Notes: generated by a model not told the origin, from the letters alone. A stretch of DNA of 64,000 nt from Selenomonadaceae bacterium (GCA_017476425.1 JAFUZV010000115.1:17349-81348); one strand, 5' to 3'. Shown: positions 6,037 to 63,852, counted from the first letter of the stretch. A program made the numbers and translations.

Positions 6037-6038
6037 AC

Positions 6039-20780: not shown

Positions 20781-20826
20781 ATTATTTTAGAAAATTAATT
20801 TAAAACAGATTGGAGGAATTTATTGG

Positions 20827-21774: not shown

Positions 21775-21834
21775 TTTTAAATCGTTGATGATAATTATAA
21801 TAGCGATAAAATTTTTAAAGAAAGGATTTTTATA

Positions 21835-22707: not shown

Positions 22708-22723
22708 TTTATGGTGAACTTAT

Positions 22724-23437: not shown

Positions 23438-23446
23438 GGTGATCAA

Positions 23447-24882: not shown

Positions 24883-24884
24883 AT

Positions 24885-32486: not shown

Positions 32487-32528
32487 AATTCATAATTCGG
32501 AATTCGGAATTAGGAATTGTTGATTAGT
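32487..32528 (+). repeat. Degenerate 7-nt tandem array (AATTCAT AATTCGG AATTCGG AATTAGG AATTGTT GATTAGT) in the fruK-PTS spacer
   Basis: Read directly. Six in-phase heptamers start 3 nt after the fruK stop and contain three GGA motifs. Confidence 0.85.
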
Positions 32529-33441: not shown

Positions 33442-33525
33442 TTGGTAATTGATAATGGGTAATTGGCAATTATTAAACAGAAAATCTTCAATTACCCATT
33501 ACACATTACCCATTACACATTAATA
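33440..33525 (+). repeat. Two opposed 7-nt arrays (AATTGGT-type x5, then ATTACCC/ATTACAC x4-5) forming a 13-bp hairpin between the PTS genes
   Basis: Units AATTGGT AATTGAT AATGGGT AATTGGC AATTATT (33440-33474) and ATTACCC ATTACAC ATTACCC ATTACAC ATTAATA (33491-33525). Positions 33453-33465 are the exact reverse complement of 33489-33501. Confidence 0.85.
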
Positions 33526-37819: not shown

Positions 37820-37901
37820 AAAAATATATTTTATTTACACTTAACTTGACTTGACTGTATTTGATTTTATTTTTTTAAAGTGTCGTAAGGTGGTGGATTT
37901 T

Positions 37902-38744
37902 ATGGATCAATTTTCTAAAAATCGTTATATCAAAGCTGGAGTTGATACAGTAAATAAAGAGTTTAATAATCAAGTGGCTGAAAACTTTGATGCAGTAATT
38001 GATGGGCGAAAAAAATTTAGTCAAGCGGCTGGTGATATAGTTGTCAATACTGCAACTAATTCAATCGTAACTTATGGTAAAGAACACGGTGAAGAAATTG
38101 CTGAGAAGGCTTTTAAAAGTCTTGCAAAGGAAGTTGAAAAACGAGTCGGCAAAAATATTTTGAGTAACACTTTAAAGTCAAATTCTGTTATTACTACAGC
38201 AGGAGCAATTTATGATGTTTACGATTCATTTGATAAGTTAATGAAAGGAGAAATTACAGGCACTGAATTTTTAAACAAATTTGTCGATAAAGGCTTAGAC
38301 ATTGTAATTCAAAATGCAGCTACTATGGCAGGAACTGCTATTGGTGCATTTGTAGGCGGTCCGGTCGGAGCAGTTGTCGGTAACATTGCAGGTGCGATCA
38401 TTAATTACTTTGCAAGTGGTTTCTTGAATGGCGTAGTTAATCGAATACGTTATTTTCGTATGGAGGCTAAAGCTGCACGTCAACGTTATGAATTTATACA
38501 CGCTTTCTGTGAACATTCAATCGCAATGATGAAAGCACAACGTGAAGAATTTGAACGTGACGTTGCACAATTTTTAAGTAATCGTCAGCAAGTTATCGAC
38601 AGAAGTCTTAACAATTATGAAACGGCACTTAAAAATAATGATTTTGATTCGATGAATGATGCACTCAACGATATAGCAGAAGAATTTGGCGGAGAACTTA
38701 CATTTAAAACGTTTGATGAATTTGACAGATTTATGAGGAGTTGA
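37902..38744 (+). CDS. Hypothetical protein with central glycine-zipper membrane segment and helical C-terminal domain
   Basis: ATG at 37902 after AAGGTGGTGG. GTAIGAFVGGPVGAVVGNIAGAIINYFASGF is a GxxxG-rich hydrophobic stretch. The C-terminus is charged and helical. No family recognised. Confidence 0.4.
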   Translation: MDQFSKNRYIKAGVDTVNKEFNNQVAENFDAVIDGRKKFSQAAGDIVVNTATNSIVTYGKEHGEEIAEKAFKSLAKEVEKRVGKNILSNTLKSNSVITTAGAIYDVYDSFDKLMKGEITGTEFLNKFVDKGLDIVIQNAATMAGTAIGAFVGGPVGAVVGNIAGAIINYFASGFLNGVVNRIRYFRMEAKAARQRYEFIHAFCEHSIAMMKAQREEFERDVAQFLSNRQQVIDRSLNNYETALKNNDFDSMNDALNDIAEEFGGELTFKTFDEFDRFMRS

Positions 38745-38748
38745 TTTT

Positions 38749-39540
38749 ATGCCGTTACCTTTTATTTTAGGCGCAGCAGCAGTTTTCGGAGCAGTAAAAA
38801 CTATTGATTCGTTGGATACAATGGACAGAGCAAAATCAATTAACAGAGAAGCTCAAGAAATTGCTGACAATGCAAAAAGTAATTACGAAGCCGCTAAAAG
38901 AGATTGTCAAAACACTCTTGAATGTTTGGGAAAAAACAAAGTTTACATTAAACAGACAAGTATTAAATATTTTACTCATCATTTTTTGCAGATTCATAAT
39001 TTACCGTTTGAATATAATGTTAAAATAAATGAATTAAGAGAAGAAGCCATTAGTGACGATAAGTTGATGAGAAACGTTGAAGACTTTGAATTTTTGGATT
39101 TTGCAGCGATTGGAGTAGCCGGTTATGCACTTGGAGCATTAAATCCAATTACTATTGCATTTAGTGGTTTAATTTTGAGGGATAAAGCAGATACGGCACT
39201 TTCTAATGCAAAATCAAATCGTGATAAGGCTCGTATGTATGAAGAACAATGTAGAAGTGCTTGTTCCTTTCTCAATGCAGTTTCGGCTCGTGGTTATCAA
39301 ATTAATGAGATTCTTGATGAATTGAATGAAAAATTTATACCAACGGTTACAGATGTAAAAGATATTATTTCAACTTACGGCACTGATTTCAGACAGTATA
39401 GTTACAATGTACAAAGAAGAGTGATGAATGCATTTAGTGTATCAGATGTTATAAGACAAATTTTAAATACTCCAATGTTGACTGAGAATGGAAAAAATAT
39501 TAATCCTCAAATCGTTGGCTTGATTGAAAAGCACGGTTAA
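38749..39540 (+). CDS. Hypothetical protein with N-terminal and central hydrophobic segments and coiled-coil-like regions
   Basis: 263-aa ORF starting 4 nt after the previous stop. Hydrophobic segments are MPLPFILGAAAVFGAV and FAAIGVAGYALGALNPITIAFSGLIL. No family recognised. Confidence 0.4.
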   Translation: MPLPFILGAAAVFGAVKTIDSLDTMDRAKSINREAQEIADNAKSNYEAAKRDCQNTLECLGKNKVYIKQTSIKYFTHHFLQIHNLPFEYNVKINELREEAISDDKLMRNVEDFEFLDFAAIGVAGYALGALNPITIAFSGLILRDKADTALSNAKSNRDKARMYEEQCRSACSFLNAVSARGYQINEILDELNEKFIPTVTDVKDIISTYGTDFRQYSYNVQRRVMNAFSVSDVIRQILNTPMLTENGKNINPQIVGLIEKHG

Positions 39541-39809
39541 TGAGTAAGTTTGAGTGCGATAAATGTGGTTTATGTTGTCAACAATTATCGAAGTCTGAAT
39601 TATATTCTTCATTAGATCGTGGCGATGGAGTTTGCAGACATTTCGATGAAACAACTAAACTTTGCAAAATTTATGCTAACCGTCCGATCATTTGTAATGT
39701 GGATGAAATTTATGATCGATTTTTGAATAAAAAGATCAGTCGAAAAGCATTTCACGATTTAAATTACGCCGTTTGTCGGCAATTAAAAAAAGTAGGCAAC
39801 TCATTTTAG
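39540..39809 (+). CDS. YkgJ-type CxxCxxCC cysteine-cluster (putative Zn/Fe-binding) protein
   Basis: 89-aa ORF. Its ATG overlaps the previous TAA by 1 nt (TAATG). FECDKCGLCCQ plus downstream Cys residues match the UPF0153/YkgJ pattern. Confidence 0.65.
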   Translation: MSKFECDKCGLCCQQLSKSELYSSLDRGDGVCRHFDETTKLCKIYANRPIICNVDEIYDRFLNKKISRKAFHDLNYAVCRQLKKVGNSF

Positions 39810-39826
39810 AATTGTCTACTTTTTTT
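39791..39826. terminator. Bidirectional terminator between the ykgJ-like gene and the SCIFF gene
   Basis: AGTAGGCAA (39791-39799) pairs with TTGTCTACT (39812-39820) with one G:U. T6 follows on the plus strand and A7 precedes, giving a T-run on the minus strand. Confidence 0.7.
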
Positions 39827-39847
39827 GTTGCGATCATTTCAAAGAAA

Positions 39848-39994
39848 TTATTTCTTTTGACGCTCGCAGACTTGATTTCCAACTGTGCAACTAGTCTTAC
39901 AAGCTGATTGACAAGATGCTTGACATTCGCCACAGCCGCCTTGTTTGATCGATTCTTGCAACGTTGGTTTGTTTACGGTTTTAATGTGCTTCAT
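39848..39994 (-). CDS. SCIFF (six-cysteines-in-forty-five) ranthipeptide precursor; absent from the ORF track
   Basis: Hand translation of the minus strand gives MKHIKTVNKPTLQESIKQGGCGECQASCQSACKTSCTVGNQVCERQKK (48 aa, 6 Cys). GAGGTG SD lies 6 nt upstream. It matches the remembered SCIFF consensus GGCGECQ.SCQSACKTSCTV.NQ.CE. Confidence 0.85.
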   Translation of the reverse strand: MKHIKTVNKPTLQESIKQGGCGECQASCQSACKTSCTVGNQVCERQKK

Positions 39995-40042
39995 AAAAAT
40001 CACCTCTGAAAATTTTTCTGATTGAATACGCAGACACTAAAA

Positions 40043-41254
40043 TTATTTATCAATCGGCAATTTGATCAGCTCACCAAAATAATCATTCATACTTTCAGGA
40101 TGCCACGTATATAAACCATTAAACGGCGTGAAAGTAAATTCACCGAATTTGATCGTGCCGTCATTCAATCGATATAAATCAATTCTAACATATGCAAAGC
40201 CTTTTGACAACTGTTCGGAAAGATCAATCATCTCATCTAAATTATCCGGCTTATCGACTTTTAAATCACTGCTTGGATAATCACTGCTTGAAAAGTCCAT
40301 TTTTTTCCAATTTCGATCGTAATTATTTTTACAAAGACCTTTGCCACGATTCGACAAAAACATTATACTTTCAACTTTGCCGCCGAAACACCAAAATTTA
40401 TAATCCCAAAGATCACCAGGCAAATTTTCAATGTACTCTTCAGCAATAATTTTCGGCTTTATGTCAAGATATTGCAACTGCAAACCGTTATAAGCATAAT
40501 TGATTTTCAACCAACGATCAAAGTTTGCCTTAGCCTTTGCAATGTCTAACTTTGATTTATCCTTGACGATAACATTCATTGCACTGCCGTGATTGCATTT
40601 CAGAACGAAACGATCCGGCAGTTCATCAAAATTAATTTCGTCGAAATTATCCCATACACCTAACAACGGAATTAAATATTTTTCACCGATCTTTTCTTTG
40701 ATATAATCCCGAACTAAATATTTATCAGTCAACAAAGTTTTCAAAGGATCACGATCATATAATTTCAACCACTGAAGTTTATCGTTGAACTTTTTGGGAT
40801 TTTCAAGATCAACATCTTCGCCGGTTCTCATCTTGTACCAATAACTTAGCATCAATGGATATTCTTCAGGCGTTATGTCTTTGAAAAAATAACCGTCATC
40901 AAAAAAATCGATCTCAAAAAAATTTTTTATATTAAGTGATCGGCACTTTTCGATCATTTCAATACGCAAAGTCGATCTAGCAGCAATCAAAACAACATCA
41001 TTATCAGATATATTTACTTCGTCAATAAGTTTTACATCTCTATCAGATATTTTATTAAACTTTCTTGTCAACTTTGAAACGATAAACGAATCAAACTTTT
41101 TACCTAAGTCATTATCATTGAGATAGGTCAATGTAAATTTGCCGTAATTTCCGGCACCATAAATATAAATTTTTTCGTAATTCTTCAGACATTTGGGCAG
41201 AGTGTAAAATATTGAAGATTGAAATTTGTTCTCGGAGACATTCATAAAATTCAC
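40043..41254 (-). CDS. TupA-like ATP-grasp protein with N-terminal Rossmann-like domain
   Basis: 403-aa ORF. FNDKLQWLKLYDRDPLKTLLTDKYLVRDYIKEKIG and FVLKCNHGS match the TupA-like ATP-grasp family as recalled. Confidence 0.65.
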   Translation of the reverse strand: MNFMNVSENKFQSSIFYTLPKCLKNYEKIYIYGAGNYGKFTLTYLNDNDLGKKFDSFIVSKLTRKFNKISDRDVKLIDEVNISDNDVVLIAARSTLRIEMIEKCRSLNIKNFFEIDFFDDGYFFKDITPEEYPLMLSYWYKMRTGEDVDLENPKKFNDKLQWLKLYDRDPLKTLLTDKYLVRDYIKEKIGEKYLIPLLGVWDNFDEINFDELPDRFVLKCNHGSAMNVIVKDKSKLDIAKAKANFDRWLKINYAYNGLQLQYLDIKPKIIAEEYIENLPGDLWDYKFWCFGGKVESIMFLSNRGKGLCKNNYDRNWKKMDFSSSDYPSSDLKVDKPDNLDEMIDLSEQLSKGFAYVRIDLYRLNDGTIKFGEFTFTPFNGLYTWHPESMNDYFGELIKLPIDK

Positions 41255-43623: not shown

Positions 43624-44871
43624 TTAAATCGCAAAATCAATCAATGAAGTCATCACTTCTAATGGATATTCTTCAAAATTGATTATATAATCCAAAATAA
43701 TCTGTTGAAATTTCGTTGCGTGATCAACTCGCTTTGAAAATCTTTCAACAAATTCAAGAAGATCATCAATAGAAAAATCTTCTTTTATCACAGCAGTCAT
43801 TGAGATTAAACCGAACTCAAAAAATTTAAAAAGCGTCAAAAATAATAAATAATTTCTCATCAACGAGCCGGACATATGACAAGGAAAAATTCCGCCAAAA
43901 AAACTATGAACTAAATAATTTTCAAGCACGTGATTAAATGGATCAAGTGCTATTTTTTTATAAATTTTTATATTGTTATCGTAAAGTCTGAAAAGTTCCG
44001 GCAATGGTTTATTTGTCTCGTCGATAAATTCAAACGCTTCTGCAACATATTTCGTGAAATTTCTCTGCTCTGTTGAGAAGTAAACAACGGCTTTTGAAAA
44101 AATTTTTTCGGCAAGTTCAAACATTATACTTAAATAATTTTCTCGTTGAAATTTTAGCGATCTGACCTTTGCCGTCAAATTTTTAAAATAATCTTCTGAT
44201 CGATAAATGCCAAAAATCAAATTTAAATGTTCACCTTTACCGTTAATAATCAAGCCGTCGATCTCTGAAAAAATTATCCCAAGTGCTGTTAATCGTTCAT
44301 TTAATGTCATTCGTCGATCTTGAAGTACTTCAAAGGCGATCTGCTGAAGGATCACTAAATATTTTCTCGTTGGTACTTCATTGACACTGCGATAAAAGAA
44401 ACTTGCTGCGTGCGTCGTCTTGAATGTCATTTTTTCAAATTTCATTGGCGATTTTTTCATTAGTGCAAGTCTAGCGGCGATCGGACAAGTTAAACTCAAA
44501 CTGCGTTCAATAACTTTATCAACTACATAAGTCCGGCGTGGAAAATCAGCGCAAGTATCAGATAAAAATTCTTCACCAAAATTTTTTTGAATCGTACAAA
44601 GCAAATCATCTCTTAACATCGGACAAATTGCATTTTCAAGCCGCATTCTATACGTCTTTGTTGATTTATTCCACTCTAAACTGTCAAGAATTTTTCGACG
44701 CAAATTTTGATCGCTAATTGATTTATATTTTTGATGAGTTTGTCGATCAATATCAACTTGAAAACCTTTGCAACAAGCTGCACCGCAATATTGCCAATCA
44801 CATTTAAAAAATTTCAAATAATCCGGCACTATGCAGGTAAATTCTTTCTCAATCTCTATCATATCTATCAC
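43624..44871 (-). CDS. fliB: FliB-like flagellin lysine-N-methylase family protein
   Basis: 415-aa ORF. The N-terminal FKCDWQYCGAACCKGFQVDIDRQTHQKYK matches the FliB Cys-cluster signature (C..C..CC.G..I..D..T...Y) as recalled. Last gene of the long minus-strand operon. Confidence 0.55.
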   Translation of the reverse strand: MIDMIEIEKEFTCIVPDYLKFFKCDWQYCGAACCKGFQVDIDRQTHQKYKSISDQNLRRKILDSLEWNKSTKTYRMRLENAICPMLRDDLLCTIQKNFGEEFLSDTCADFPRRTYVVDKVIERSLSLTCPIAARLALMKKSPMKFEKMTFKTTHAASFFYRSVNEVPTRKYLVILQQIAFEVLQDRRMTLNERLTALGIIFSEIDGLIINGKGEHLNLIFGIYRSEDYFKNLTAKVRSLKFQRENYLSIMFELAEKIFSKAVVYFSTEQRNFTKYVAEAFEFIDETNKPLPELFRLYDNNIKIYKKIALDPFNHVLENYLVHSFFGGIFPCHMSGSLMRNYLLFLTLFKFFEFGLISMTAVIKEDFSIDDLLEFVERFSKRVDHATKFQQIILDYIINFEEYPLEVMTSLIDFAI

Positions 44872-44941
44872 TCCAAAAAAAAAATTTTACCGCAAAATCG
44901 TTTAAATTGCGATAAAAATTTTTATTTAATTCAAATTTTAT

Positions 44942-45787
44942 TTAAAGAAGTTTAATAATCGCCTCGTTGATCCTTCTTGCAACATAAACATTATTCATTA
45001 CATAAAGGTGAATCCCGTCGACACCATTAGCCAGCAGATCAACAATTTGATTTTGTGCATAAACTATTCCGGCTTCCTGCAACGCCTCATCATTATCACC
45101 ATATTTATCAAGAATCTTTCTAAACTTGATCGGTAATGTTGCGCCGCAGATATTAATCATTCGTTCAATATGTTTCTTCTTAGTTACCGGCATAATTCCG
45201 GCTTCAATAGGAACATTTACACCGAGTCGATCAATTTTTTCACGGAAGTAATAAAACGAATTATTATCAAAGAAAAGTTGAGAGATTAAACCATCAACAC
45301 CGGCATCAACTTTTTGCTTGAGATAATTCAGATCGCTGTCAAAATCGATCGCCTCAGTATGTCCTTCAGGATAACAAGCAGCGTAGATTTTAAATTTGCT
45401 ATCGGTTTTCTCACGAATGAATTTTATCAGATCAACTGCGTGAATAAAATCATTTTTCGGTTCAACTCCAGGCACTTTATCACCACGAAGTGCCAAAATT
45501 TCATTAATTCCACTCAATTCAAGTTGATACAAAATATTTTCTGCATCAGCTTTCGTCAGATTAATGCAAGGCATATGAGCAACGCTTTTTCTATGATATT
45601 TGTCTTTGATCGCCGTCGCAACTTCAATCATTCTTTCGCTTGCATTAGAACTTGATCCACCGGCTCCGCAAGTTACGCTGATAAAATCCGGCTGAAGATC
45701 GGAAAGTTGATCAAGTGTATTATAAATCACTTCAACCGGCATATCTTTTTTCGGCGGAAAGACTTCAAACGAAAATTTTGTCCTCAT
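44942..45787 (-). CDS. metF: 5,10-methylenetetrahydrofolate reductase
   Basis: 281-aa ORF. SFEVFPPKK, ISVTCGAGGS and ALRGD are MTHFR hallmarks. The start overlaps the upstream GT41 gene by 23 nt. Confidence 0.85.
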   Translation of the reverse strand: MRTKFSFEVFPPKKDMPVEVIYNTLDQLSDLQPDFISVTCGAGGSSSNASERMIEVATAIKDKYHRKSVAHMPCINLTKADAENILYQLELSGINEILALRGDKVPGVEPKNDFIHAVDLIKFIREKTDSKFKIYAACYPEGHTEAIDFDSDLNYLKQKVDAGVDGLISQLFFDNNSFYYFREKIDRLGVNVPIEAGIMPVTKKKHIERMINICGATLPIKFRKILDKYGDNDEALQEAGIVYAQNQIVDLLANGVDGIHLYVMNNVYVARRINEAIIKLL

Positions 45788-48700
45788 CTTCTTTTTTCAC
45801 CTCACTCATCTTTTTGATCAGTTGATTATAGCACTGCTCCAATATCTGAATATAAATCTTAGGTTGAAATGTATCTGTTTTTTGCATCATCGAACGAAGA
45901 TTTTTGTGTAACATTGTCAGTGCGTCTTTATCATTTGCAAGTCCGACTGCACGCCCGATATATTCATTAACATTATTTACCGCAAAATCTTTCAAGCCGT
46001 TGATATTTTGCATAATCGACAAAGCAAAGCGACTGTCACGGCGTTCATAGTACAAACTTACTACCGGCACGCCCATAAAGATTGAATCAAAAGTCATAGC
46101 GGCATCAGAACGTGGAAAAGTATCAAGCATTATATCAATATCCAAAATGTGTTTGAGATAATCAAATTCTGTTATTTTGAATGTTACATTATCCATATTA
46201 AAGCCGATTTTTTTCAAACGATTATAAGCCGAATCTACCATTGAATCACTTTTAAATTCATCTGATCTGATAATCAATTTTGAATCCGGAACACGTTTTA
46301 AAATTTCATTCCAGATTTTCAAAATATCATCACTAATTTTTTTATAAGAATGAAATGCACCGAAAGTTACATAATTATTTTTCAGACAAGGCGGATACAC
46401 CGGTTTAGGAGCTTCGCTATTACTTGCATAACTGAATTGACAAGGAAAATAAATGAATGTCTCTTTGAAATATTTTTGATGAAGTTCAGGCGGATCAGTC
46501 TGCTTATCCGTTATGAAATAATTCATTGTATTAAGTCCGGTTGTCGCTGCCGCACCGATCGCTGAAATTTGAATTGGTGCAGGTTTATAACTAAACGCTG
46601 CTAATGAAGTTGTAGGACTATGACCATCAAGATCAACCAAAATATCAATTTGATCGTCGTGAATTTTCTCTGCAAGTTGTTCAATCGTTAAATCATCAAC
46701 TCTTTCAAAATGTTCGACGGCAGGAACGATCGCATTAGTGAATGGATCATCAGCGTCGCTAGTCGAATAGCAATAAACTTCAAAATTATTTTTATTATGA
46801 CAAGCAAGAATGCCATAAATAAAAGCAAATTTATCACTCTTACAGAAATATTTTGAAACGTAACAAACTTTAATACGTCGTTGACCTTCGATAATTCCAT
46901 TAAAATCATTAAATTGATCGTAAGGTTTAACGTTATCAAAGATTTTCTGATATTGAAAATGAGTATTTGCAAGATCAGCAGTCGAAATGTTGAGATTTTC
47001 TAAAGCGTCAAGAGTCTTGCTGAAAAGTTTTGTACGTTCTTCAAAATCCGCCGCAAGATTAATCGAATGATTGTAATGTTCAAACGCATCAGCATTATTA
47101 CTATTAATTATTGCAAGTTCACCACGAAGTACATCATAACGCTTGATCAGTTCACGATCTGTTTGATCATTAAAATACTTTTTCGCCGAACAAATTTTTT
47201 CATAAGCACCGGCATAATCGTTGAGATTTTCTTTAGCCTTAGCAAGCAACAAATAAATTTCAGCAAGATTTTTATTTTCAACTTCAGTTGCACGATCTAA
47301 ATAATAAGCCGCACGCTTAACATTTACGATATTTTCGATCTTACCTTCGTTAAAGCCTTCTTCATAATTAACATACTCAAGTGCACGCTGATAAAATTTT
47401 TCTGCATCTTCAGTTGTGATCGGCGGCTCATCTTGTGGAAAGTCCGGCAATTCTTCACCATTAATCCACGCATTAAAAATTTTTTCATAAGCTGATTCGA
47501 CTTCTGCCATATAAATTGTATCATTCATAATAGGTGATTGTCTCATCTGTCGACGTAAAGTCAAATGATAATTCCTTACACGATCCCAATCGTTAGCAAG
47601 ATCAATCGCTTTTTGAATGTATTCTTCTTCGGAGAAAGTGCAAAGTTCATCAAGTCCCATATTGTGAAGAAGTGAATAACCAAAACGAGCGTTATGACGT
47701 TCACCAACAAGAGTAATGACCGGAATGCCCATATAAAGTGCATCGCAAGTTGTACCGCCGCCGGGATATGGAAAAGTATCAAGCGCAATATCCGTCAAAT
47801 TATATTTGTGAAGATATTTTATTTCGTCAGCTTCCATTATAACCCGATCAAGCGGAAGACCTGCCGCCTTCATTCTCTCTTTAGCGTCATTAATTCCATA
47901 TTCAGTTCTAAACGCTTTACCTTTCAAGAATAATTTTGAGTTCGGTACAGCGTTAATTATTTTTGCCCAAGCTCTCAACGTCTCATCAGTAACTTTAGCG
48001 AAATTATTAAAACTTACGAAAGTTATATAACCATTCTTAGTGCAAGGTGCAGGCGTGATTTCACTCGGTGCATCGTGCCACATATAACAGAAATGACTAT
48101 GTTGCAGACGCAGAATTTTTTCACTAAAAAAGTCGTCGTTAAGTCCTTGCGGATCAGTGTATTTATCGCACAAGAAATAATCAATCGTCTTTAAACCGGT
48201 TGAATTAAACCAACCGATCGCACTGATTTGAACCGGCGCAGGTTTATAAGCCATAACTTGTAAAGTGTTATTAGCCGTGTGACCGGAGAGATCAACCAAA
48301 ATATCAATTTCATCATTTTTGATCTTCTCCGCCGCTTGTGCAGGTGTATCAAATAAAATATTCGTCCAGTGATCAACACTTTTTTTAAATTCTTGTGCTG
48401 CCTGATCTTCCATACATTTTGGATAACAATAGACTTCAAATCTACTTTTATCATAAGCCTTGTAAAAAGCATAACTGAAGAATGCAACAACGTGACGACG
48501 AATATCCGGCGAAATATAACCGATACGAATTTTTTCGTGACGTGGATGAGTTAAACGATCGTGTTGATACGGATTAAAATCTTTGAAAATATCATTATAA
48601 TCACAAATTGCCTTGAATAAATCCTCACGGCTGATATTAACATTGTGCAAGGAGAAAAGATAATTGCTGTAGTCGTCGCACTTGATATTAAACAAATATT

Positions 48701-49199
48701 TATAAGTTTCCGGCTCATTCTTGTATGGTGAAATATCATTAACAGAACTCTTATAGTAATGTTCAATACTTTTTGGAGCATCACCGACATAACGATAGGC
48801 ATGACCTAAAATATTGTGAATCATCATTTTAGTTAAAAGCGTTGCATCCGGAATTTCTAAAGCCTTTTCAGCGTATTTTATACAGCTTTCATAATCGTGA
48901 CGAAGATCATAAACTCTTGATTTCAAAAACATTCGATATGACGACGGCGGAAAATGTTTTTCCATATACTCAGACGCTTTAGCAGCTCTATCAGTTTCGT
49001 TAATATCAACCAAAATTGAAGTGACTTTTTCGCAAGGATAAGGCTCAGTCGGAGAGAGTGCCATAATTTCCTCTGTAAGTCTAATGGTATTCGGACGATC
49101 GTGCTTGTTCATATGAGTATCAAGCAGTTCAGTTAATAAAGTTGCTACTTGTTTTTTCTTCTTCTCAACGTCTTTTTTATTTGTTTTAAGTTTTCGCAT
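45765..49199 (-). CDS. TPR protein with two tandem GT41 (SPINDLY/O-GlcNAc-transferase-like) catalytic modules
   Basis: 1144-aa ORF. Two homologous blocks are present (IRIGYISPDIRRHVVAFF...LVDLSGHTANNTLQVMAYKPAPVQISAIGWFNSTGL and IKVCYVSKYF...LVDLDGHSPTTSLAAFSYKPAPIQISAIGAAATTGL), each preceded by TPR-like helical repeats. Confidence 0.7.
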   Translation of the reverse strand: MRKLKTNKKDVEKKKKQVATLLTELLDTHMNKHDRPNTIRLTEEIMALSPTEPYPCEKVTSILVDINETDRAAKASEYMEKHFPPSSYRMFLKSRVYDLRHDYESCIKYAEKALEIPDATLLTKMMIHNILGHAYRYVGDAPKSIEHYYKSSVNDISPYKNEPETYKYLFNIKCDDYSNYLFSLHNVNISREDLFKAICDYNDIFKDFNPYQHDRLTHPRHEKIRIGYISPDIRRHVVAFFSYAFYKAYDKSRFEVYCYPKCMEDQAAQEFKKSVDHWTNILFDTPAQAAEKIKNDEIDILVDLSGHTANNTLQVMAYKPAPVQISAIGWFNSTGLKTIDYFLCDKYTDPQGLNDDFFSEKILRLQHSHFCYMWHDAPSEITPAPCTKNGYITFVSFNNFAKVTDETLRAWAKIINAVPNSKLFLKGKAFRTEYGINDAKERMKAAGLPLDRVIMEADEIKYLHKYNLTDIALDTFPYPGGGTTCDALYMGIPVITLVGERHNARFGYSLLHNMGLDELCTFSEEEYIQKAIDLANDWDRVRNYHLTLRRQMRQSPIMNDTIYMAEVESAYEKIFNAWINGEELPDFPQDEPPITTEDAEKFYQRALEYVNYEEGFNEGKIENIVNVKRAAYYLDRATEVENKNLAEIYLLLAKAKENLNDYAGAYEKICSAKKYFNDQTDRELIKRYDVLRGELAIINSNNADAFEHYNHSINLAADFEERTKLFSKTLDALENLNISTADLANTHFQYQKIFDNVKPYDQFNDFNGIIEGQRRIKVCYVSKYFCKSDKFAFIYGILACHNKNNFEVYCYSTSDADDPFTNAIVPAVEHFERVDDLTIEQLAEKIHDDQIDILVDLDGHSPTTSLAAFSYKPAPIQISAIGAAATTGLNTMNYFITDKQTDPPELHQKYFKETFIYFPCQFSYASNSEAPKPVYPPCLKNNYVTFGAFHSYKKISDDILKIWNEILKRVPDSKLIIRSDEFKSDSMVDSAYNRLKKIGFNMDNVTFKITEFDYLKHILDIDIMLDTFPRSDAAMTFDSIFMGVPVVSLYYERRDSRFALSIMQNINGLKDFAVNNVNEYIGRAVGLANDKDALTMLHKNLRSMMQKTDTFQPKIYIQILEQCYNQLIKKMSEVKKEDEDKIFV

Positions 49200-49222
49200 T
49201 TAATCTTAACCTCCAAAAAAAT

Positions 49223-50311
49223 TTATTTATTGCCTTTCATTCTGGCATAATCCGCTTTCCATACTTCTAAGCGTTCTTTTGCCATCTTAGCCATCGTATT
49301 ATTAAATAACATCGGTTCTAATCCGTCATAATTTGCATATGCTTTTAAAGCCGTTTCCATTTCGGCGATCGCTTCAGGAAATTTTCTTTCAATGATCAAA
49401 CATTCAGCGTGTTCAGCGTGAAATTCCGGCGTTTCTGGAAAATCCTTAACGGCTTTAGCAGAATATTTGATCCGATCGACAATTCGTCTCGGCTCTCTTG
49501 CGAGAATATTTAACAAAATTCTATATGAGGAACTTGCAAAGGTTGTATCACGTCGACCGCCGTTAATATCTTTGATAGCATATTTTTCAGCGTTGATATA
49601 ATCTTTCAAGCCGTTGTAACACTGCGCAATATAACCATAAATTCTTTCCGGCTGATCAGTTAATTCAAGTTCAGCAAGCAGCATTTTTAAATTTCGCCGT
49701 GCCTTGTCAGCATTAATCGCCGTTGAATAGCCAGTATGATAAAGCGTCAAAATTTCCGTCGGAACTAAAGATAATTCAGTCAACGTTGTATTGTCAGCTC
49801 TATGAAGTTCTTCGTGAATCCTTCCAACGTATTTATAACCTTCAAAATTTCTGAACGCTCTTAGCAAGTAAGTTGTATCTAAAACTTTATTTTGTCTGTC
49901 AACGTCGATATTTATCAGATTAACTAAAATTCCTTCTTTATGTTCCTTATCAGCCTTTTCAATCAGCGGACGAATATTTTTTGCAGTCTCTTTTGAAAAA
50001 AATTCATCAGCGTCAAGAAATAAAATCCAATCGCCGGTAGCGTTATCAAGTGCCATATTGCGAGGCTTTGAAAAGTCATTAGTCCATTCGCAATTTAAAA
50101 CTTTTGCGCCGAAAGTCTTTGCAACTTCAATCGTTTGATCAGTGGAGCCGGTGTCTACGATCACAATTTCATCAACTTGACTTTTAAGACTGTTAATTGA
50201 TCGAGGCAAATTATTTTCTTCATTCTTAGTAATGTAGCAAGCCGTAATTTTCAGTTGAGATTTTATTTGTGACTTTGATTTAATTTTTTTCGTCGGTTTT
50301 AATTTTCTCAT
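49223..50311 (-). CDS. GT2 glycosyltransferase-TPR fusion (GmaR-like), paralog 5 of 5
   Basis: 362-aa ORF. ITACYITKNEE, VIVDTGSTDQT and DWILFLDADEFF (DxD), with a TPR-like C-terminal half. N-terminal tag MRKLKPTKKIKSKS. Confidence 0.75.
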   Translation of the reverse strand: MRKLKPTKKIKSKSQIKSQLKITACYITKNEENNLPRSINSLKSQVDEIVIVDTGSTDQTIEVAKTFGAKVLNCEWTNDFSKPRNMALDNATGDWILFLDADEFFSKETAKNIRPLIEKADKEHKEGILVNLINIDVDRQNKVLDTTYLLRAFRNFEGYKYVGRIHEELHRADNTTLTELSLVPTEILTLYHTGYSTAINADKARRNLKMLLAELELTDQPERIYGYIAQCYNGLKDYINAEKYAIKDINGGRRDTTFASSSYRILLNILAREPRRIVDRIKYSAKAVKDFPETPEFHAEHAECLIIERKFPEAIAEMETALKAYANYDGLEPMLFNNTMAKMAKERLEVWKADYARMKGNK

Positions 50312-50328
50312 TTAATCACCTTCATTTC

Positions 50329-50391
50329 AATGCAGAATGTAGAATGCAGAATTCAAAATTATTTAGCCCTCAGCCCTCAGCATTTAGCCCT
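50329..50391. repeat. Nine in-phase heptamers (AATGCAG AATGTAG AATGCAG AATTCAA AATTATT TAGCCCT CAGCCCT CAGCATT TAGCCCT) between two GT2-TPR genes
   Basis: Read directly. The array starts 5 nt from the SD complement (CACCTTC, 50317-50323) of the downstream minus-strand gene and runs into the last codons of the upstream gene (stop at 50370-50372). Confidence 0.85.
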
Positions 50392-51332
50392 ATAATTTTC
50401 AGAGAACTTTTTGCTAATGATTTTATATCTTGATCGGAACTCTTAGCAGCAATTTTAAGATCAACTTTTGCTTTGTCAAGTTGTTTCGTGAGATAAAACA
50501 TTAAACCTCGTTCAAGCCGAAAATAATAATCATTAGGAATTTCATCAACCGCTTGATTAGCAACTTTAATAATTTCTTCCGGCGAACAATTTACTTGACG
50601 CATTGCATTTAAAGTCTTGCGATAAAAAATATTTAAGCCGGTGATCGGACGCAGATCAGTTTCAAGAATTTTATTAGCGTGTTCAAGTGCCTTTGCATAA
50701 TCGCCAAGAGCATAATAACAATCGACAAGTGCAATATGATGACGGAATTGCAAACCGATCTGATCGATCTCTTTGTTAATAATTCGTAAATTGCGATTTA
50801 GTTTATCATTCGCTTTTGATTCACTGTAACCAGTATGATAGATCGTTAAATCGTCATTTGCAACTTCATAATTAAAATTTCCGCCTTTAATATTCTCTAA
50901 ATTCTCGTGAATGAGTCCTTGATAGCGGAGATAATCGACGTTGCGAAAAATCCTCACATAAATATCACGGTTAAGCGGCTTGTTATTATGATCAGTGTCA
51001 ATGTCGATTCTTGGAATGAAAACAGCATCGCTTTTGAAATTTTTAAATGCACGACGAATTTTTTTCGGCTTAATGAAATATTCATCAGCGTCGATCATAA
51101 TGATCCATTCACCGGCAGCATTTTCAATCGCTAAATTTCTCGGCTCACTAAAATCATCTTTCCATTCGTAATTAATAATTTTAGCGTTGAATGATTTTGC
51201 AATTTTGATCGTCCGATCAGTTGATCCGGTGTCGACAATGATTAATTCGTCAACACTTTTGATAAGTGATTCGATCGACTTTGATAAATTTTTCTCTTCA
51301 TTCTTAACAATGTAGCACGCAGAAATTTTCAT
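50370..51332 (-). CDS. GT2 glycosyltransferase-TPR fusion (GmaR-like), paralog 4 of 5 (lacks the basic N-terminal tag)
   Basis: 320-aa ORF beginning MKISACYIVKNEEKNL. IIVDTGSTDRT and EWIIMIDADEYF. The start overlaps the upstream stop by 4 nt. Confidence 0.75.
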   Translation of the reverse strand: MKISACYIVKNEEKNLSKSIESLIKSVDELIIVDTGSTDRTIKIAKSFNAKIINYEWKDDFSEPRNLAIENAAGEWIIMIDADEYFIKPKKIRRAFKNFKSDAVFIPRIDIDTDHNNKPLNRDIYVRIFRNVDYLRYQGLIHENLENIKGGNFNYEVANDDLTIYHTGYSESKANDKLNRNLRIINKEIDQIGLQFRHHIALVDCYYALGDYAKALEHANKILETDLRPITGLNIFYRKTLNAMRQVNCSPEEIIKVANQAVDEIPNDYYFRLERGLMFYLTKQLDKAKVDLKIAAKSSDQDIKSLAKSSLKIIGLNAEG

Positions 51333-52687
51333 TGCATTAACCTCTTAACTTCGTCTAAACGTTCTTGCACTCGTCCGGCGATTCTTGCAAAATATTTTTT
51401 CGGATCATTATTCCATAACTCCAACGATTTTTGCAAATCTTCAAAGCCTTTATCAAGTCGATTATTATCAATGTAAATCATTCCACGTTCAGCATAAAAC
51501 TCAGGACATTGAGGAAAATATTTTATCGCTTCATTGACAACTTTTAAAATATTTTCGATCGGCTTTTTGAGAAGATACATAGCCTTGATAATTATTCGAT
51601 ATAATTTATCAGTACGAAAATTATTTTTGATCGCGGCATTCGCAAATTGCAAGGCTTTTTCTTGATCGCCAATGATTGAATAATTGTCAGCAAAATCAGC
51701 GTCGTGATAAGGTTGATGACCGTGAATTTTAATATCATTTTTAATCTTCACAATATCACGTTGACAATAAGAATTGATCGCTTCTTGTTTACGATTCATT
51801 TTTTCTAAAATTATTCCACGCTGATCATAAAATAACGGCAAGTCCGGCAGACATTTGATCGCTTCATCAATCGCTTGTAAAATTTCTTCGTTAGGATATT
51901 TCAATTCATACATTGCTTTCAAAATGTGAATGAATGGTGCTTCAGGATTTGTAATTATTTCTTTGTAATTCTTCGCTGCACGTTTAGCATAATTTAAACA
52001 ATTTTCCCATTCACCTAAGCCTGCATAACAATTTGCATAACTCATATCTTGCTGAACTCTATAGCCATAATTTTTAATTTCAAGCTCCAAAATTCTCAAG
52101 TTGCGAAGATATTTTTCACGATGAACTGATTGACTGTAGCCGGTATGATAAGCAGTCAGAGCATCATCAGCTAAAGTAAATGGCATTTTTTTATCCTTGA
52201 TATTTTCTAAATTCTCGTGAATCATTCCACGATAACGCAGCCACGAAACATTTTTAAAAATTCTCAAGTCACGGTTACGATTAATTTCACGATTATTATT
52301 ATCTTCGTCGATATTGATCCGCTGAATTAAAATTGTTGTTGCAGTCGACGATAATTTTTCAATCGCCGGACGAACTTTTTCCGGGTAAATGAAAAATTCA
52401 TCAGCGTCCAAAAAAATGATCCAATCACCTGTTGCGTTATCAAGTGCAACATTTCTCGGTGCAGAAAAATCATCATTCCATTCAAAATTAATGACCTTTG
52501 CATTGTACGACTTAGCGATCTCAATAGTTCGATCAGTCGATCCCGTATCAACAACAATCAATTCATTAACAGCGTTAATTAGCGAGTCGATCGATCTTGC
52601 TAAATTCTTCTCTTCATTTTTAACGATATAACAAGCGGAAATTTTTAATTTTGATTTAGTTTTCTTTGATGGTTTTAATTTTCTCAT
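51329..52687 (-). CDS. GT2 glycosyltransferase-TPR fusion (GmaR-like), paralog 3 of 5
   Basis: 452-aa ORF. MRKLKPSKKTKSKLKISACYIVKNEE, VVDTGSTDRT and DWIIFLDADEFF. It has the longest TPR tail of the five. The start overlaps the upstream stop (ATGA). Confidence 0.75.
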   Translation of the reverse strand: MRKLKPSKKTKSKLKISACYIVKNEEKNLARSIDSLINAVNELIVVDTGSTDRTIEIAKSYNAKVINFEWNDDFSAPRNVALDNATGDWIIFLDADEFFIYPEKVRPAIEKLSSTATTILIQRINIDEDNNNREINRNRDLRIFKNVSWLRYRGMIHENLENIKDKKMPFTLADDALTAYHTGYSQSVHREKYLRNLRILELEIKNYGYRVQQDMSYANCYAGLGEWENCLNYAKRAAKNYKEIITNPEAPFIHILKAMYELKYPNEEILQAIDEAIKCLPDLPLFYDQRGIILEKMNRKQEAINSYCQRDIVKIKNDIKIHGHQPYHDADFADNYSIIGDQEKALQFANAAIKNNFRTDKLYRIIIKAMYLLKKPIENILKVVNEAIKYFPQCPEFYAERGMIYIDNNRLDKGFEDLQKSLELWNNDPKKYFARIAGRVQERLDEVKRLMQ

Positions 52688-53823
52688 TTTGATAACCTCT
52701 GAAATTCAATAGCACGATTTTTATAATTTTGATTCTGCGGTGAAATTTTGATCGCCTCAGAAATATTTTTTTGCGCCGCTTTGAAATTCCCTGCAAGTGC
52801 CTCAAGTTCTGCAAGCTGCGCATAAACAACATCAACCATTCTGGCAAAATATGAATCCTCGTGAATATTTTTCGGCGAATTTTTCCAAACTCTCAACGAT
52901 TGGTGAAAACTTTCATAAGCCTCAGATAATCTATTGAGATCGCATAAAACGATCGCACGAATTGCATAAAAATCCGGAATGTTAGGCAAAACTTTTATCG
53001 CCTCATCAGCAACTTTCAAACGTTCTTCATCTGGATATTTTAATTCGTGCATTGCATTGATCAAATTCCTGTAAATTCTTCCACGTCCGGTTAATGTCCT
53101 TGACGTTGAATTTAAAACTTTTTCAGCGTAGTAAATAACTTTCTCATAGTCTTCAAGTCCAACATAACAATCAACAAGTGCTATATCGTGCTTAGGCTCA
53201 CGTCCGAAAAGTTTAATTTCTTTTTCGATCAGTTTTAAATTTCTTTCGTGTTTACTTTTGATCGTCGTTGCTCCGTAGCCTGTGTGATAAATCGTTAAAT
53301 CTTCGTCAGCAAAAGTAAAATTTAAATTTTTGCCTCGAATATCAGTTATATTTTCGTGAATTAAACCACGATAACGAAGATAATTAACATTTTTAAAAAT
53401 TCGTGGATTCCAATCTCGACTAATTTCTCTATTACCTTTTGATTCATCGATATTGATCCGCTGATTTAAAATCACGTCTTTACTTGATAACTTTTCGATC
53501 GCTGATCTAACTTTCTTAGGCGTAATGAAATACTCATCAGCATCTAAAAAAATTATCCAATCACCTGTAGCATTATCGATCGCAATATTTCTCGGCGTTG
53601 AAAAATCATCTTGCCATTTCGTTTCGATCATCTTTGCGCCGTATGAATTAGCTATTTCGATAGTTCGATCACTTGATCCCGTATCAACAACGATCAATTC
53701 ATCAACAACATTTTTAAGACTGTCGATCGATCTAGGTAAATTTTCTTCTTCATTCTTAACCATATAGCAAGCCGTTAATTTTAATGTTGACTTCAATTTT
53801 TTTGATGGTTTTAATTTCCTCAT
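52684..53823 (-). CDS. GT2 glycosyltransferase-TPR fusion (GmaR-like), paralog 2 of 5
   Basis: 379-aa [39 protein letters not shown] and DWIIFLDADEYF. 4-nt overlap with the upstream gene. Confidence 0.75.
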   Translation of the reverse strand: MRKLKPSKKLKSTLKLTACYMVKNEEENLPRSIDSLKNVVDELIVVDTGSSDRTIEIANSYGAKMIETKWQDDFSTPRNIAIDNATGDWIIFLDADEYFITPKKVRSAIEKLSSKDVILNQRINIDESKGNREISRDWNPRIFKNVNYLRYRGLIHENITDIRGKNLNFTFADEDLTIYHTGYGATTIKSKHERNLKLIEKEIKLFGREPKHDIALVDCYVGLEDYEKVIYYAEKVLNSTSRTLTGRGRIYRNLINAMHELKYPDEERLKVADEAIKVLPNIPDFYAIRAIVLCDLNRLSEAYESFHQSLRVWKNSPKNIHEDSYFARMVDVVYAQLAELEALAGNFKAAQKNISEAIKISPQNQNYKNRAIEFQRLSK

Positions 53824-54872
53824 TTCAATTTTCCTTTGTACTCTTCAATCTCTTTCATTCTCTCAAGAACTTTATCAATCGCCGCTGAAAAATAAGAATC
53901 ATTATGGACTTTATGATCTAAATGTTTCCAAACCTCAAGCGATTTTTCAAACGATTTGTAAGCCTCATCAATATATCCAAGTCCACAGAGGATCATTCCA
54001 CGTTCAGCATAAAATTCCGGCAGATTCGGCATTTCTTTTATCGCTCGTTCAACTATCAACAACATTTTTTCATCAGAATATTTCAAATCACGCATTGCAT
54101 TTAACACTTTATGATAGAGATCGCCGCGACTGGTAATAATATCAACGTCAGCATTTAAAGCCTTAAGTGCGTGAAGTAATGCTTTCTCACTATTGCCTAA
54201 ACCTGCATAACAATCAGCAAGTGCAATATCGTGTTGAGACTGATGTCCGATCATTTCAATTTCACGATTAATTATTTCAAGATTTCTTAGCAATTTATTT
54301 TTAATGATCTGCGAACTATAGCCGGTATGATAAATTGCAAGATCATCATCAGCAAAAACATATTTCAATTTACCGTCTTTAATGTTGGTGATATTTTCGT
54401 GAATTAATCCACGATAACGAAGGTGATCAACATTTTTAAAAATTCTAGCACACCAATCACGTGTTAATTCTTGATTTTGATTATCTTGATCAATATTAAT
54501 TCTTGAAATTAAAATAACTTCTTTAGTTGAAAATTTTTCGATCGCTTGACGGACTTTTTTAGGATTTATAAAAAATTCATCAGCGTCAAGGAAAATGATC
54601 CAATCGCCATTTGAATTATCAATCGCTAAATTGCGTGGCGTGCTAAAATCATCATTCCAAACATAATTAAAAATTTTAGCATTGTAACTTTCAGCAATTT
54701 CAATCGTCCGATCAGTTGATCCCGTGTCGACAACAATAATTTCATCAACTGCATTGATCAGTGAATCGATCGATCGCTTTAAATTATTTTCTTCATTCTT
54801 AACGATATAACAAGCCGAAATTTTAATTTGAGATCGTGATTTAAATTTCTTCGACGATTTTATTTTCTTCAA
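53820..54872 (-). CDS. GT2 glycosyltransferase-TPR fusion (GmaR-like), paralog 1 of 5
   Basis: 350-aa ORF. MKKIKSSKKFKSRSQIKISACYIVKNEE, VVDTGSTDRT and DWIIFLDADEFF. Confidence 0.75.
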   Translation of the reverse strand: MKKIKSSKKFKSRSQIKISACYIVKNEENNLKRSIDSLINAVDEIIVVDTGSTDRTIEIAESYNAKIFNYVWNDDFSTPRNLAIDNSNGDWIIFLDADEFFINPKKVRQAIEKFSTKEVILISRINIDQDNQNQELTRDWCARIFKNVDHLRYRGLIHENITNIKDGKLKYVFADDDLAIYHTGYSSQIIKNKLLRNLEIINREIEMIGHQSQHDIALADCYAGLGNSEKALLHALKALNADVDIITSRGDLYHKVLNAMRDLKYSDEKMLLIVERAIKEMPNLPEFYAERGMILCGLGYIDEAYKSFEKSLEVWKHLDHKVHNDSYFSAAIDKVLERMKEIEEYKGKLK

Positions 54873-54878
54873 AATTTT

Positions 54879-55073
54879 TCACCTTCTTTTGGAACGCTTA
54901 AACATATTTAACAACAAGAAGGCAATTACCACACCGGCGAATATATAAATATCATTTTCGTGCACAAGATCGCCTGTACCATTTTCTTCGATCTTAACGA
55001 AAATCGCCATTACAACCAAAATCACTACTAAAACATTTGAGATCAATCGTCCGTGAGTTTTTAAAAATTGCAT
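54879..55073 (-). CDS. Small two-TM membrane protein, first gene of the glycosyltransferase operon
   Basis: 64-aa ORF with a strong SD (AAGGCGGTGAAG). Two hydrophobic segments. The stop lies 6 nt before the next gene. Confidence 0.4.
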   Translation of the reverse strand: MQFLKTHGRLISNVLVVILVVMAIFVKIEENGTGDLVHENDIYIFAGVVIAFLLLNMFKRSKRR

Positions 55074-55167
55074 AACTTCACCGCCTTATTAATCACTTGC
55101 AATTATTATCAATAACGTTTAAAATATATTCAGATTTAAAATTAAAAAATTTTTGAGGAGAATATAA

Positions 55168-63775: not shown

Positions 63776-63852
63776 AATGCGGAATTATGAATGCGGAATG
63801 CGTAATTAATAATTGATCCAATTCCGAATTCCTCATTCCGAATTAATTCGAC
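63776..63852. repeat. Eleven in-phase heptamers forming an imperfect long hairpin in the flgE 5' region
   Basis: Plus-strand units are AATGCGG AATTATG AATGCGG AATGCGT AATTAAT AATTGAT CCAATTC CGAATTC CTCATTC CGAATTA ATTCGAC. The first half is largely complementary to the second (16 of 19 in the best register). The array starts 5 nt from the SD complement CTCCTTC (63764-63770). Confidence 0.85.

Follow-up and report, generated by a model that had tools for sequence, protein, structure and literature searches.

In Salmonella, the lysine residues of flagellin are methylated by FliB. Flagellin is also a target of glycosyltransferases, and the characterized one nearest to the locus described here is GmaR of Listeria monocytogenes, a soluble protein of 637 amino acids (aa) in which a GT-A domain at the N-terminal end is followed by a tetratricopeptide repeat (TPR)-type helical domain; it O-glycosylates flagellin directly in the cytoplasm (PMC9638930) and adds one N-acetylglucosamine (GlcNAc) at a single site. 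The locus in question lies in a 64,000-nucleotide (nt) stretch of a Selenomonadaceae (Negativicutes) genome (GCA_017476425.1 JAFUZV010000115.1:17349-81348), here called the window. It is an operon of nine genes at 43624-55073, which encode, in order, a small protein with two transmembrane segments, five proteins with a glycosyltransferase family 2 (GT2) domain and a TPR-like region, an 1144-aa protein with two TPR-GT41 (glycosyltransferase family 41) units, MetF and a full-length FliB. A multi-enzyme system of flagellin glycosylation and methylation was the original prediction, and this is still the best-supported reading: with a probability of about three in four, the products would be soluble cytoplasmic enzymes that decorate flagellin before export. 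The reading is carried by indirect, comparative evidence: by the relation of the GT2 proteins to GmaR, by 16 homologous loci in which the modules adjoin a flagellin gene and by the placement of FliB after the double GT41 gene in four lineages. The operon is not a new kind of system. It belongs to a generally known class of loci for flagellin modification, and represents a family-wide modular system in its most split-up form.

Comparison with described systems

The N-terminal GT-A domain of GmaR is clearly homologous to those of the operon (E 1e-31), and the alignment preserves the nucleotide-binding and DxD regions; a helical domain of the TPR type comes next in both, and the operon proteins are proposed to act in the same way as GmaR. 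GmaR, however, also has a linker and anti-repressor domains that bind MogR (PMC9638930), whereas the operon proteins (320-452 aa) have nothing beyond a short helical domain and are found as five copies of two classes, together with GT41 and FliB. As the regulatory domains of GmaR are absent, the operon proteins are not GmaR orthologs.

The enterobacterial flagellin glycosylation islands (FGI) and FliB methylation islands (FMI) contain the same enzyme families, i.e. GT2, SPINDLY-type GT41 and FliB, with the same proposed job (De Maayer & Cowan 2016, PMC4875605). These islands are situated inside the fliDC/fliAZ flagellin locus and carry one to three glycosyltransferases plus sugar-synthesis genes; GT2 and GT41 are mutually exclusive there, and FGI and FliB islands are reported to be almost so (PMC4875605). 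The window, in contrast, has five GT2 genes, two GT41 modules and FliB in one operon, so that glycosylation and methylation genes stand together, but the operon lacks genes for sugar synthesis and is not next to a flagellin gene. For these last two reasons, the operon is not a canonical FGI. Glycosyltransferase genes at the flagellin locus, which define an FGI, are found neither in the window nor in the 21 loci of its clade, but they are found in 16 other Selenomonadaceae loci.

A more distant parallel is FlmG of Caulobacter, which binds flagellin through a TPR domain and, in the cytoplasm before export, adds the sugar with a separate catalytic domain (PMC7591256). Paralogs of Maf owe their choice of site to TPR domains, as cited in PMC13317340, and in Clostridium the combination of GT2 and TPR serves as a criterion for flagellin glycosyltransferases (PMC13317340). 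FlmG and Maf transfer nonulosonic acids, however, and their catalytic folds or families are unrelated to GT2; the likeness to FlmG is one of shared logic. No genes of nonulosonic acid synthesis are present in the window.

The nine-gene operon

All nine open reading frames (ORFs) are on the minus strand and run head to tail from 55073 to 43624, the interval originally assigned to them. The junctions, in gene order, are +6, -4, -4, -4, +58, +23, -23 and +70 nt; each of the three -4 junctions is an overlap of ATGA. The tiny gaps and overlaps first described are therefore real, and Pfam and NCBIfam domain assignments agree with the predicted gene order and families for GT2, GT41, MetF and FliB.

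The GT2 proteins, all encoded on the minus strand, are designated a to e in gene order. Paralog a (350 aa, TTG start, 53820-54872) matches the GT2 family PF00535 at 81.9 bits and TPR_2 at 28.6 bits. Paralog b (379 aa, 52684-53823), which has an ATGA overlap with both neighbours, scores 81.7 and 27.3 bits with the same two models. Paralog c (452 aa, 51329-52687) has the longest TPR region (PF00535 91.4, TPR_9 37.7 and TPR_2 37.1 bits). Paralog d (320 aa, 50370-51332) has a short helical tail, with PF00535 at 72.6 bits and TPR below the Pfam cut-offs, and paralog e (362 aa, 49223-50311) matches PF00535 at 91.6 bits. The GT2 domain is thus present in five of five, at 73-92 bits against a cut-off of 23.3. 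As for the TPR half of the predicted 'GT2 + TPR' architecture, Pfam places it above its own cut-offs in three paralogs (350, 379 and 452 aa), weakly in the 320-aa protein and not at all in the 362-aa protein; for these two it follows from the alignment, as the five proteins can be aligned over their entire length, and from a structural model of the 362-aa protein.

Four catalytic motifs show no variation among the five GT2 proteins: VVDTGS.D, which binds the nucleotide, DADE (DxD), IHE and YHTGY. None of the five, therefore, resembles a dead copy. When paralogs b and e were compared with the PDB by phmmer, the top match was GmaR (22ao_A) in both cases (E 1.2e-31 for b and 3.5e-31 for e, 112-113 bits), and SunS was second at approximately 70-73 bits; paralogs a, c and d are tied in through the same invariant motifs. 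Paralog e, since it has no Pfam TPR match, was chosen for AlphaFold modelling. The model (predicted local distance difference test score, pLDDT, 92.4) has a GT-A domain at residues 22-195, followed by eight repeat-like helices. In a Foldseek search, its top matches over the whole protein were SunS and ThuS (E 1e-20, TM-score relative to the query, TMq, 0.65-0.70), whereas TarS, TarP and RmlT ranked lower (E 1e-8 to 1e-11) and covered the catalytic core only (TMq 0.34-0.43). Because GmaR is the best relative by sequence, and SunS and ThuS match the fold of the whole protein where TarS and TarP match the core, the five are predicted to be protein-directed GT2 enzymes of the GmaR/SunS structural type.

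Could these proteins instead be SunS-type S-glycosyltransferases that modify a secreted bacteriocin peptide, a glycocin? SunS and ThuS are the closest whole-protein folds, in which the GT-A domain precedes a TPR-like helical region for recognition of a protein or peptide acceptor; both enzymes glycosylate a peptide directly, and the SunS model TIGR04195 is the best NCBIfam match for all five paralogs. The scores with this model, however, are 67-86 bits, far under its cut-off of 350, and by sequence GmaR outscores SunS (112 vs 73 bits). The operon has neither a C39-peptidase ABC (ATP-binding cassette) transporter nor a thiol-disulfide oxidoreductase among its domains, no precursor-peptide gene was noticed, and five copies joined to GT41 and FliB are unlike a glycocin cluster in both context and copy number. 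A role in glycocin synthesis is thus extremely improbable.

The lower-ranked Foldseek matches raise another question, namely whether the GT2 enzymes modify a glycopolymer of the cell envelope in the manner of TarS, TarP or RmlT, the operon being a cell-wall or lipopolysaccharide locus that is near fliB by chance. There are weak NCBIfam matches to glycosyltransferases of exopolysaccharide and teichuronic acid synthesis, and a gene for a TupA-like ATP-grasp protein is located 2.4 kb downstream, but three plus-strand genes separate it from the operon. The TarS, TarP and RmlT similarity is to the generic GT-A core, while SunS and ThuS are similar throughout. Pfam and NCBIfam searches of the operon did not reveal flippase, polymerase, polyprenyl-phosphate transferase or ABC exporter domains, there is no apparent membrane protein save the 64-aa one with its two hydrophobic segments, and relatives of these modules adjoin flagellin genes. 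A cell-envelope function is very unlikely.

Origin and divergence of the GT2 paralogs

The phylogeny of the five paralogs was inferred from a neighbour-joining tree of GT2 domains, which carries no bootstrap support. It separates two old classes, with one class A gene (paralog e) and four class B duplicates (paralogs a-d). (L-numbers below are labels of the homologous loci that were compared; L001 is the window's own locus on a metagenome contig.) Paralog e, which adjoins the GT41 gene, groups with the first GT2 domain of flagellin-adjacent proteins and with GT2 units that are fused to a double GT41 (GT41x2) in sister lineages; from its position in the tree it appears to be a distinct, older type. 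The class B quartet arose by duplications that postdate the divergence from L006, a lineage with a single gene of each class. Class B paralogs have one-to-one orthologs in L086 and L087, and the five-gene array is therefore at least genus-deep. The ortholog of paralog d is found at 8018-8935 in L087, and in L086 it forms the first half of a 692-aa fusion protein.

Between paralogs, the GT domain is 47-68% identical but the C-terminal helical domain only 22-45%. Between orthologs in the two species compared, the corresponding values are 63-75% and 48-63%; paralog c and its L087 ortholog, for example, share 75% of the GT domain and 61% of the C-terminal domain. By these sequence comparisons, it is mainly the putative domain for acceptor binding in which the paralogs diverge, and its versions are kept across orthologs. 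The pattern fits what acceptor or site specialization predicts, although it is not proof of it. Of the site-, sugar- or flagellin-specific roles that had been suggested for the paralogs, it is a difference in acceptor or site that agrees with TPR-like domains that are divergent yet conserved in orthologs. Most likely, what separates the class B enzymes is not donor chemistry, which they would share, but the acceptor site, the stage of the glycan or the flagellin paralog that each serves. The five GT2 genes thus exist as described, but their number, which had been viewed as an expansion, is not exceptional, as relatives have three to five GT2 modules fused within larger proteins.

The double GT41 protein

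The 1144-aa protein (45765-49199, minus strand) matches PF13844 at 285.4 bits in four stretches (cut-off 25). Domain hidden Markov models (HMMs) made from homologs place one GT41 catalytic module at residues 200-585 and a second at 760-1129. Among solved relatives, the best match is Arabidopsis SPINDLY (module 1, 259 bits; module 2, 177 bits), followed by the O-GlcNAc transferase (OGT) of Thermobaculum (T. terrenum) and then by human OGT. The Pfam TPR signal is sub-threshold (TPR_1, 22.6 bits), but designed consensus TPR (CTPR) proteins match residues 94-153 (E 7.6e-9), and the AlphaFold model (overall pLDDT 77.9) displays helical-repeat blocks at 8-205 and 596-754 with a pLDDT of approximately 90. 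The TPR protein with two GT41 modules that had been proposed is confirmed in this way, with the modules delimited by HMM and the TPR blocks by structural modelling. As a helical-repeat block precedes each GT41 module, the protein represents a tandem duplication of a TPR-GT41 unit.

The important residues of human OGT are an active-site His, a Lys that contacts the donor phosphate and a G-x-T-T phosphate loop. Like SPINDLY and the OGTs, module 1 retains all three, and its own motifs are RRH, FNNFAK and GGGTTCD. In module 2 the Lys is kept, but there is a Ser at the position of the His (FCKSD, vs FFTHS in SPINDLY and RCHP in T. terrenum OGT), and the phosphate loop reads SDAAMT where SPINDLY has GTTTT; the His position is unconserved across 11 aligned homologs. 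Judged by these motifs, module 1 has a complete OGT/SPINDLY-type active site and probably adds a further sugar. Module 2, where the conserved His is lost along with most of the loop that binds phosphate, may be a non-catalytic scaffold or may have an altered activity.

Multiplication of GT41 modules has gone further in other organisms. Giants with six GT41 modules are found outside the Selenomonadaceae, with 4869 aa in a cyanobacterium and 3733 aa in a metagenome-assembled genome (MAG) of Pelobacter, and GT41 genes also form runs, as a Planctomycetota MAG has eight or nine in tandem and a Veillonellaceae MAG has five, which contain seven modules (coordinates of these giants and gene runs: L032 2635-17241, L033 5621-16819, L051 374-16047 and L023 9434-24375).

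FliB, MetF and the head protein

The last gene of the operon, fliB (43624-44871, minus strand), encodes a flagellin lysine-N-methylase of 412-415 aa. It matches the equivalog model NF038110 at 201.8 bits (cut-off 85) over profile positions 1-371 of 373, and PF27117 (FliB_C) is recorded for the identical gene in L001. Full-length FliB immediately follows GT41x2 in L006, L092/93 and L094/95, each time with different flanks, and in the window metF is inserted between the two; the association of FliB with GT41x2 is thus present in four lineages counting the window. FliB is also found standing alone. An adjacent flagellin gene, as in the fliB-fliC arrangement of Salmonella, was not found among the ORFs screened in the window, and it is glycosyltransferases that adjoin FliB.

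A FliB-like gene is also present a few kilobases from single-module GT41 genes in L055, L064, L072, L074, L075, L077 and L082. This was considered as additional linkage and rejected, as the gene encodes a half-length homolog in a housekeeping context (mutS-mutL or smpB). The homolog (approximately 345 aa; L075 14870-15907) aligns to positions 1-193 of the FliB model only, yet scores above the cut-off. It sits beside an FMN reductase gene and mutL in many Selenomonadaceae and is possibly mis-annotated as a flagellin methylase.

The metF gene (44942-45787, minus strand) overlaps the GT41 gene by 23 nt and encodes a 281-aa 5,10-methylenetetrahydrofolate reductase, with 310 bits to TIGR00676, above the equivalog cut-off of 293.7, and 250 bits to PF02219. 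The arrays of L006, L092/93 and L094/95 are without MetF.

The first gene (54879-55073, minus strand) encodes the 64-aa protein with two hydrophobic segments, to which no Pfam or NCBIfam family was matched. Homologs of 61-74 aa nevertheless start the glycosyltransferase array in five lineages including the window, even where the upstream neighbour is different. They are located at 4064-4258 in L086 (98 bits), and, with scores of approximately 48 bits, at 9458-9643 in L002, 9607-9831 in L008 and 8726-8947 in L010.

Related loci in the Selenomonadaceae

When one genome per species was scanned with an alignment based on the 1144-aa protein, 80 loci were obtained, nearly all from Selenomonadaceae; GT2, GT41, FliB, MetF and flagellin were mapped on all 80 with phmmer and hmmsearch. 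In 16 loci of other Selenomonadaceae, a flagellin gene is directly upstream of GT2 modules and GT41 modules come next. The gap between the flagellin gene and the modules is 97-269 nt in 12 of the 16. Selenomonas ATCC 33150, Selenomonas sp. AE3005, S. flueggei, S. ruminantium, Pectinatus cerevisiiphilus, Mitsuokella and Anaerovibrio are among the carriers. The 16 loci have in total two to five GT2 and one to five GT41 modules each, and the GT2 units, of approximately 340 aa, are fused in proteins of 500-1550 aa. In a comparison of three of the putative flagellins with NCBIfam, flagellin models gave the best matches. Selenomonas ATCC 33150 belongs to a species in which heavy O-glycosylation of flagellin is known.

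Four of these sets (ATCC 33150, S. flueggei, S. ruminantium and Pectinatus cerevisiiphilus) are the closest in content to the operon. They have both module types, GT2 before GT41, with three to five GT2 and two to five GT41 modules, but these are fused in proteins of 500-2000 aa, stand right after the flagellin gene and are without FliB and MetF. The window, in contrast, has five separate GT2 genes away from a flagellin gene, in an array that ends in metF and fliB. Particular to the window, then, are separate GT2 genes (four recent class B duplicates and one class A gene) that are off the flagellin locus and joined to FliB and MetF.

The flagellin of S. sputigena is reported to carry heavy O-glycosylation, with rhamnose-containing glycans at many sites (Rath et al. 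2018, as cited in PMC13339959, PMC7142665 and bioRxiv 10.1101/2024.05.20.594992). This mass spectrometric record fits a multi-enzyme GT2/GT41 set, and the modules described here are proposed as candidate genes for these glycans. In the literature searched, no publication that assigns the Selenomonadaceae GT2/GT41 genes was found, and an earlier description is possible.

The window's own clade consists of 21 loci with GT41x2 proteins of 47-100% identity, and the number of GT2 copies varies. There are none in L002, L008, L009 and L016; one in L010, and one fused to GT41x2 in L011-13, L017 and L019; two in L006, and two fused in L004; three in L092/93, and three fused in L014, L015 and L027 (2136-2161 aa); and five in the window, L086 and L087. 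The fused forms, with one, two or three GT2-TPR units and GT41x2, are proteins of 1459-2161 aa. These natural fusions of GT2 and GT41 are, by sequence, Rosetta-stone evidence of joint action.

The largest fusions stand alone among housekeeping genes. These are polypeptides of 1812-2161 aa at L014 2058-8465, L015 6965-13372, L027 3574-10056 and L004 9950-15385, where two or three GT2-TPR units are combined with two GT41 modules, i.e. up to five glycosyltransferase domains in each.

Is flagellin the substrate?

Several observations weigh against flagellin as the substrate. A Pfam screen of non-overlapping ORFs of at least 100 aa did not find a flagellin gene in the 64-kb window, and none is beside the array in the available sequence of the clade's 21 loci, where the arrays lie amid housekeeping genes. 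Identity to the flagellin-adjacent homologs is approximately 35-50% only. None of the nine operon products matches a Pfam or NCBIfam family of sugar-nucleotide biosynthesis. MetF is inside the array in one species only (the window and L001), and its linkage could be incidental. The window does not contain a match to a sigma-28-type promoter (TAAA-N14-17-GCCGATAW), and a repeat motif common to flgE and a junction between two GT2 genes is not specific to flagellar genes (see below). The organism itself is an uncultured rumen-type MAG.

With no flagellin gene adjacent in the window's clade, flagellin is proposed as the substrate because of FliB and of the more distant relatives. Could the array have acquired another substrate after it left the flagellin gene, e.g. 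a pilin, an adhesin, an S-layer or outer-membrane protein, or many targets as with OGT? The housekeeping contexts would suit such a switch, as would the frequent presence of GT41x2 without a GT2 partner (L002, L008, L009 and L016), and a cyanobacterial GT41 Ogt does modify pilin (PMC9306852). Yet full-length FliB, for which flagellin is the only known substrate, is part of the operon or directly adjoins GT41x2 in four lineages within the window's clade; homologous modules are adjacent to flagellin genes in the 16 other loci, and the nearest characterized GT2 relative is a flagellin transferase. A change of substrate is accordingly considered unlikely, and flagellin is retained as the probable target.

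That the organism owns flagellar genes is shown by a gene for a FlgE-like hook protein outside the operon (62066-63751, minus strand), which matches Pfam Flg_bb_rod, FlgE D1 and Flg_bbr_C, and TIGR03506 at 236.7 bits (cut-off 70.25). It is approximately 7 kb from the operon, as had been pointed out. The operon is otherwise flanked upstream by housekeeping genes, i.e. a divergent YgbA_NO gene, RodA/FtsW, TrmB and LepA, and downstream by genes for an HpcH-type aldolase, a TetR regulator and rubrerythrin. The G+C content of the island is 0.344 vs 0.347 for the rest of the window, thus there is no sign of recent import.

A proposed pathway and its significance

From the domain identities, motifs, synteny and fusions observed, we infer the substrate, the sugar donors, the order of action and complex formation as follows. 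The GmaR-like GT-A domains, with their intact DxD motifs, would use nucleotide-sugar donors, and the helical domain would dock each enzyme on flagellin, or on flagellin that is already glycosylated. The GT2 enzymes might then O-glycosylate Ser/Thr residues or extend the glycans, and GT41 module 1 would add a further sugar. The O-linked glycans would be placed on the surface-exposed region of flagellin before export and be built from common nucleotide sugars. Because sister lineages fuse up to three GT2-TPR units to GT41x2 in a single polypeptide, the GT2-TPR proteins and the TPR-GT41 protein may work as one complex. FliB would subsequently methylate flagellin lysines with S-adenosylmethionine (SAM), and MetF, co-transcribed with it, may increase the methyl supply.

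A broader view can be suggested tentatively, with less confidence than the assignment of the operon itself. The complex, heterogeneous O-glycans of Selenomonadaceae flagellins might come from a combinatorial kit, where GT2-TPR and TPR-GT41 units are duplicated, split and fused, and where the TPR region sets the site, the glycan stage or the flagellin paralog; in the lineage of the window, the kit would have become detached from the flagellin gene and wired to lysine methylation by FliB and methyl supply by MetF, and the glycosylation and methylation of one protein would form a single co-expressed pathway. The range per locus is zero to five GT2 and two to five GT41 modules, from genes that are all separate to one polypeptide of approximately 2160 aa with five catalytic domains.

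How do protein O-glycosyltransferases choose their sites? This is an open question (PMC7591256), and the family can serve as a natural series for it, with similar catalytic domains, diverging TPR-like domains and modules that are separate or fused. As the catalytic domains are alike and the modules come both split and fused, domain swaps or flagellin reconstitution should be easy to design in culturable relatives, e.g. S. ruminantium, ATCC 33150 and Pectinatus.

Repeat elements and promoter regions

The spacer before the 362-aa gene (50312-50369, 58 nt, minus strand) carries, by Tandem Repeats Finder (TRF), heptad repeats, AATGCAG x3.4 and AGCCCTC x2.4. The window holds four copies of ATTCYGCATT, arranged in two tandem pairs, of which one immediately precedes the ribosome-binding site of the 362-aa gene and the other that of flgE; 1.05 occurrences are expected by chance, for a pattern that was picked post hoc. 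The statement that this junction has the same leader as flgE is therefore valid as regards the sequence element. As a sign of flagellar co-regulation, however, the shared leader was rejected. TRF finds heptad repeats of the same type between pfkB and a phosphotransferase system (PTS) gene and between two PTS genes, in a PTS-fructose operon, and the spacer is absent in the nearest relatives, with a 5-nt gap in L087 and fused genes in L086. A strong hairpin (-27.4 kcal/mol, z -6.2) results from the inverted heptad arrays that separate the two PTS genes, whereas the flgE leader and the GT junction fold no better than shuffled sequence (z +0.6 for the 58-nt spacer).

Among the 89 sequences compared, the exact motif is present in no other lineage and recurs only in L001, the window's own locus. 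A loose look-alike, repeats of the ATTCCGCATT/ACGCATT type, is found antisense within a GT41 gene of an Anaerovibrio MAG (L026, approximately 6900-6990, minus strand), and was the only one outside the window's own locus among the loci compared at that point. Within the window, intergenic heptad repeats recur at 32494-32518, 33439-33522, 50329-50381 and 63776-63844, with the units AATTCGG, TAATTGG/ATTACAC, AATGCAG/AGCCCTC and AATGCGG/AATTCCG. They may constitute a species-specific element, similar to repetitive extragenic palindromic (REP) sequences or involved in RNA stability.

The scans for sigma-70 promoters and terminators give consensus-level matches only. One sigma-70-like site, with 11 of 12 positions matched to the consensus, is just upstream of the spacer (50479-50452, minus strand). 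The operon promoter itself is presumed to be in the intergenic region shared with the divergent YgbA_NO gene (55074-55167), where the sigma-70 scan lists no strong site.

Other features of the window

Downstream of fliB by 2.4 kb, the region 37851-41254 has two plus-strand ORFs (297 and 263 aa) without a family match, followed by the minus-strand TupA-like ATP-grasp gene; no link of this region to the island was found. At 3045-7136 (minus strand), three tandem radical-SAM paralogs with CofH/MqnC C-terminal domains (360, 363 and 365 aa) are beside a PNP_UDP_1 nucleosidase-like gene, and the group may be a menaquinone cluster of the futalosine type or related to one. An ABC transporter operon for branched-chain amino acids (19049-24220, plus strand) is interrupted between its two permease genes and the ATPase gene by a DNA methylase gene (N6_N4_Mtase, 19932-20780), an unassigned 290-aa ORF and a PHP-domain gene, which is an odd arrangement. 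Finally, at 24571-25922 (plus strand), a PqqD-like gene precedes a radical-SAM gene, with approximately 350 nt of unassigned sequence upstream; the two may represent a small maturation pair for a ribosomally synthesized and post-translationally modified peptide (RiPP).

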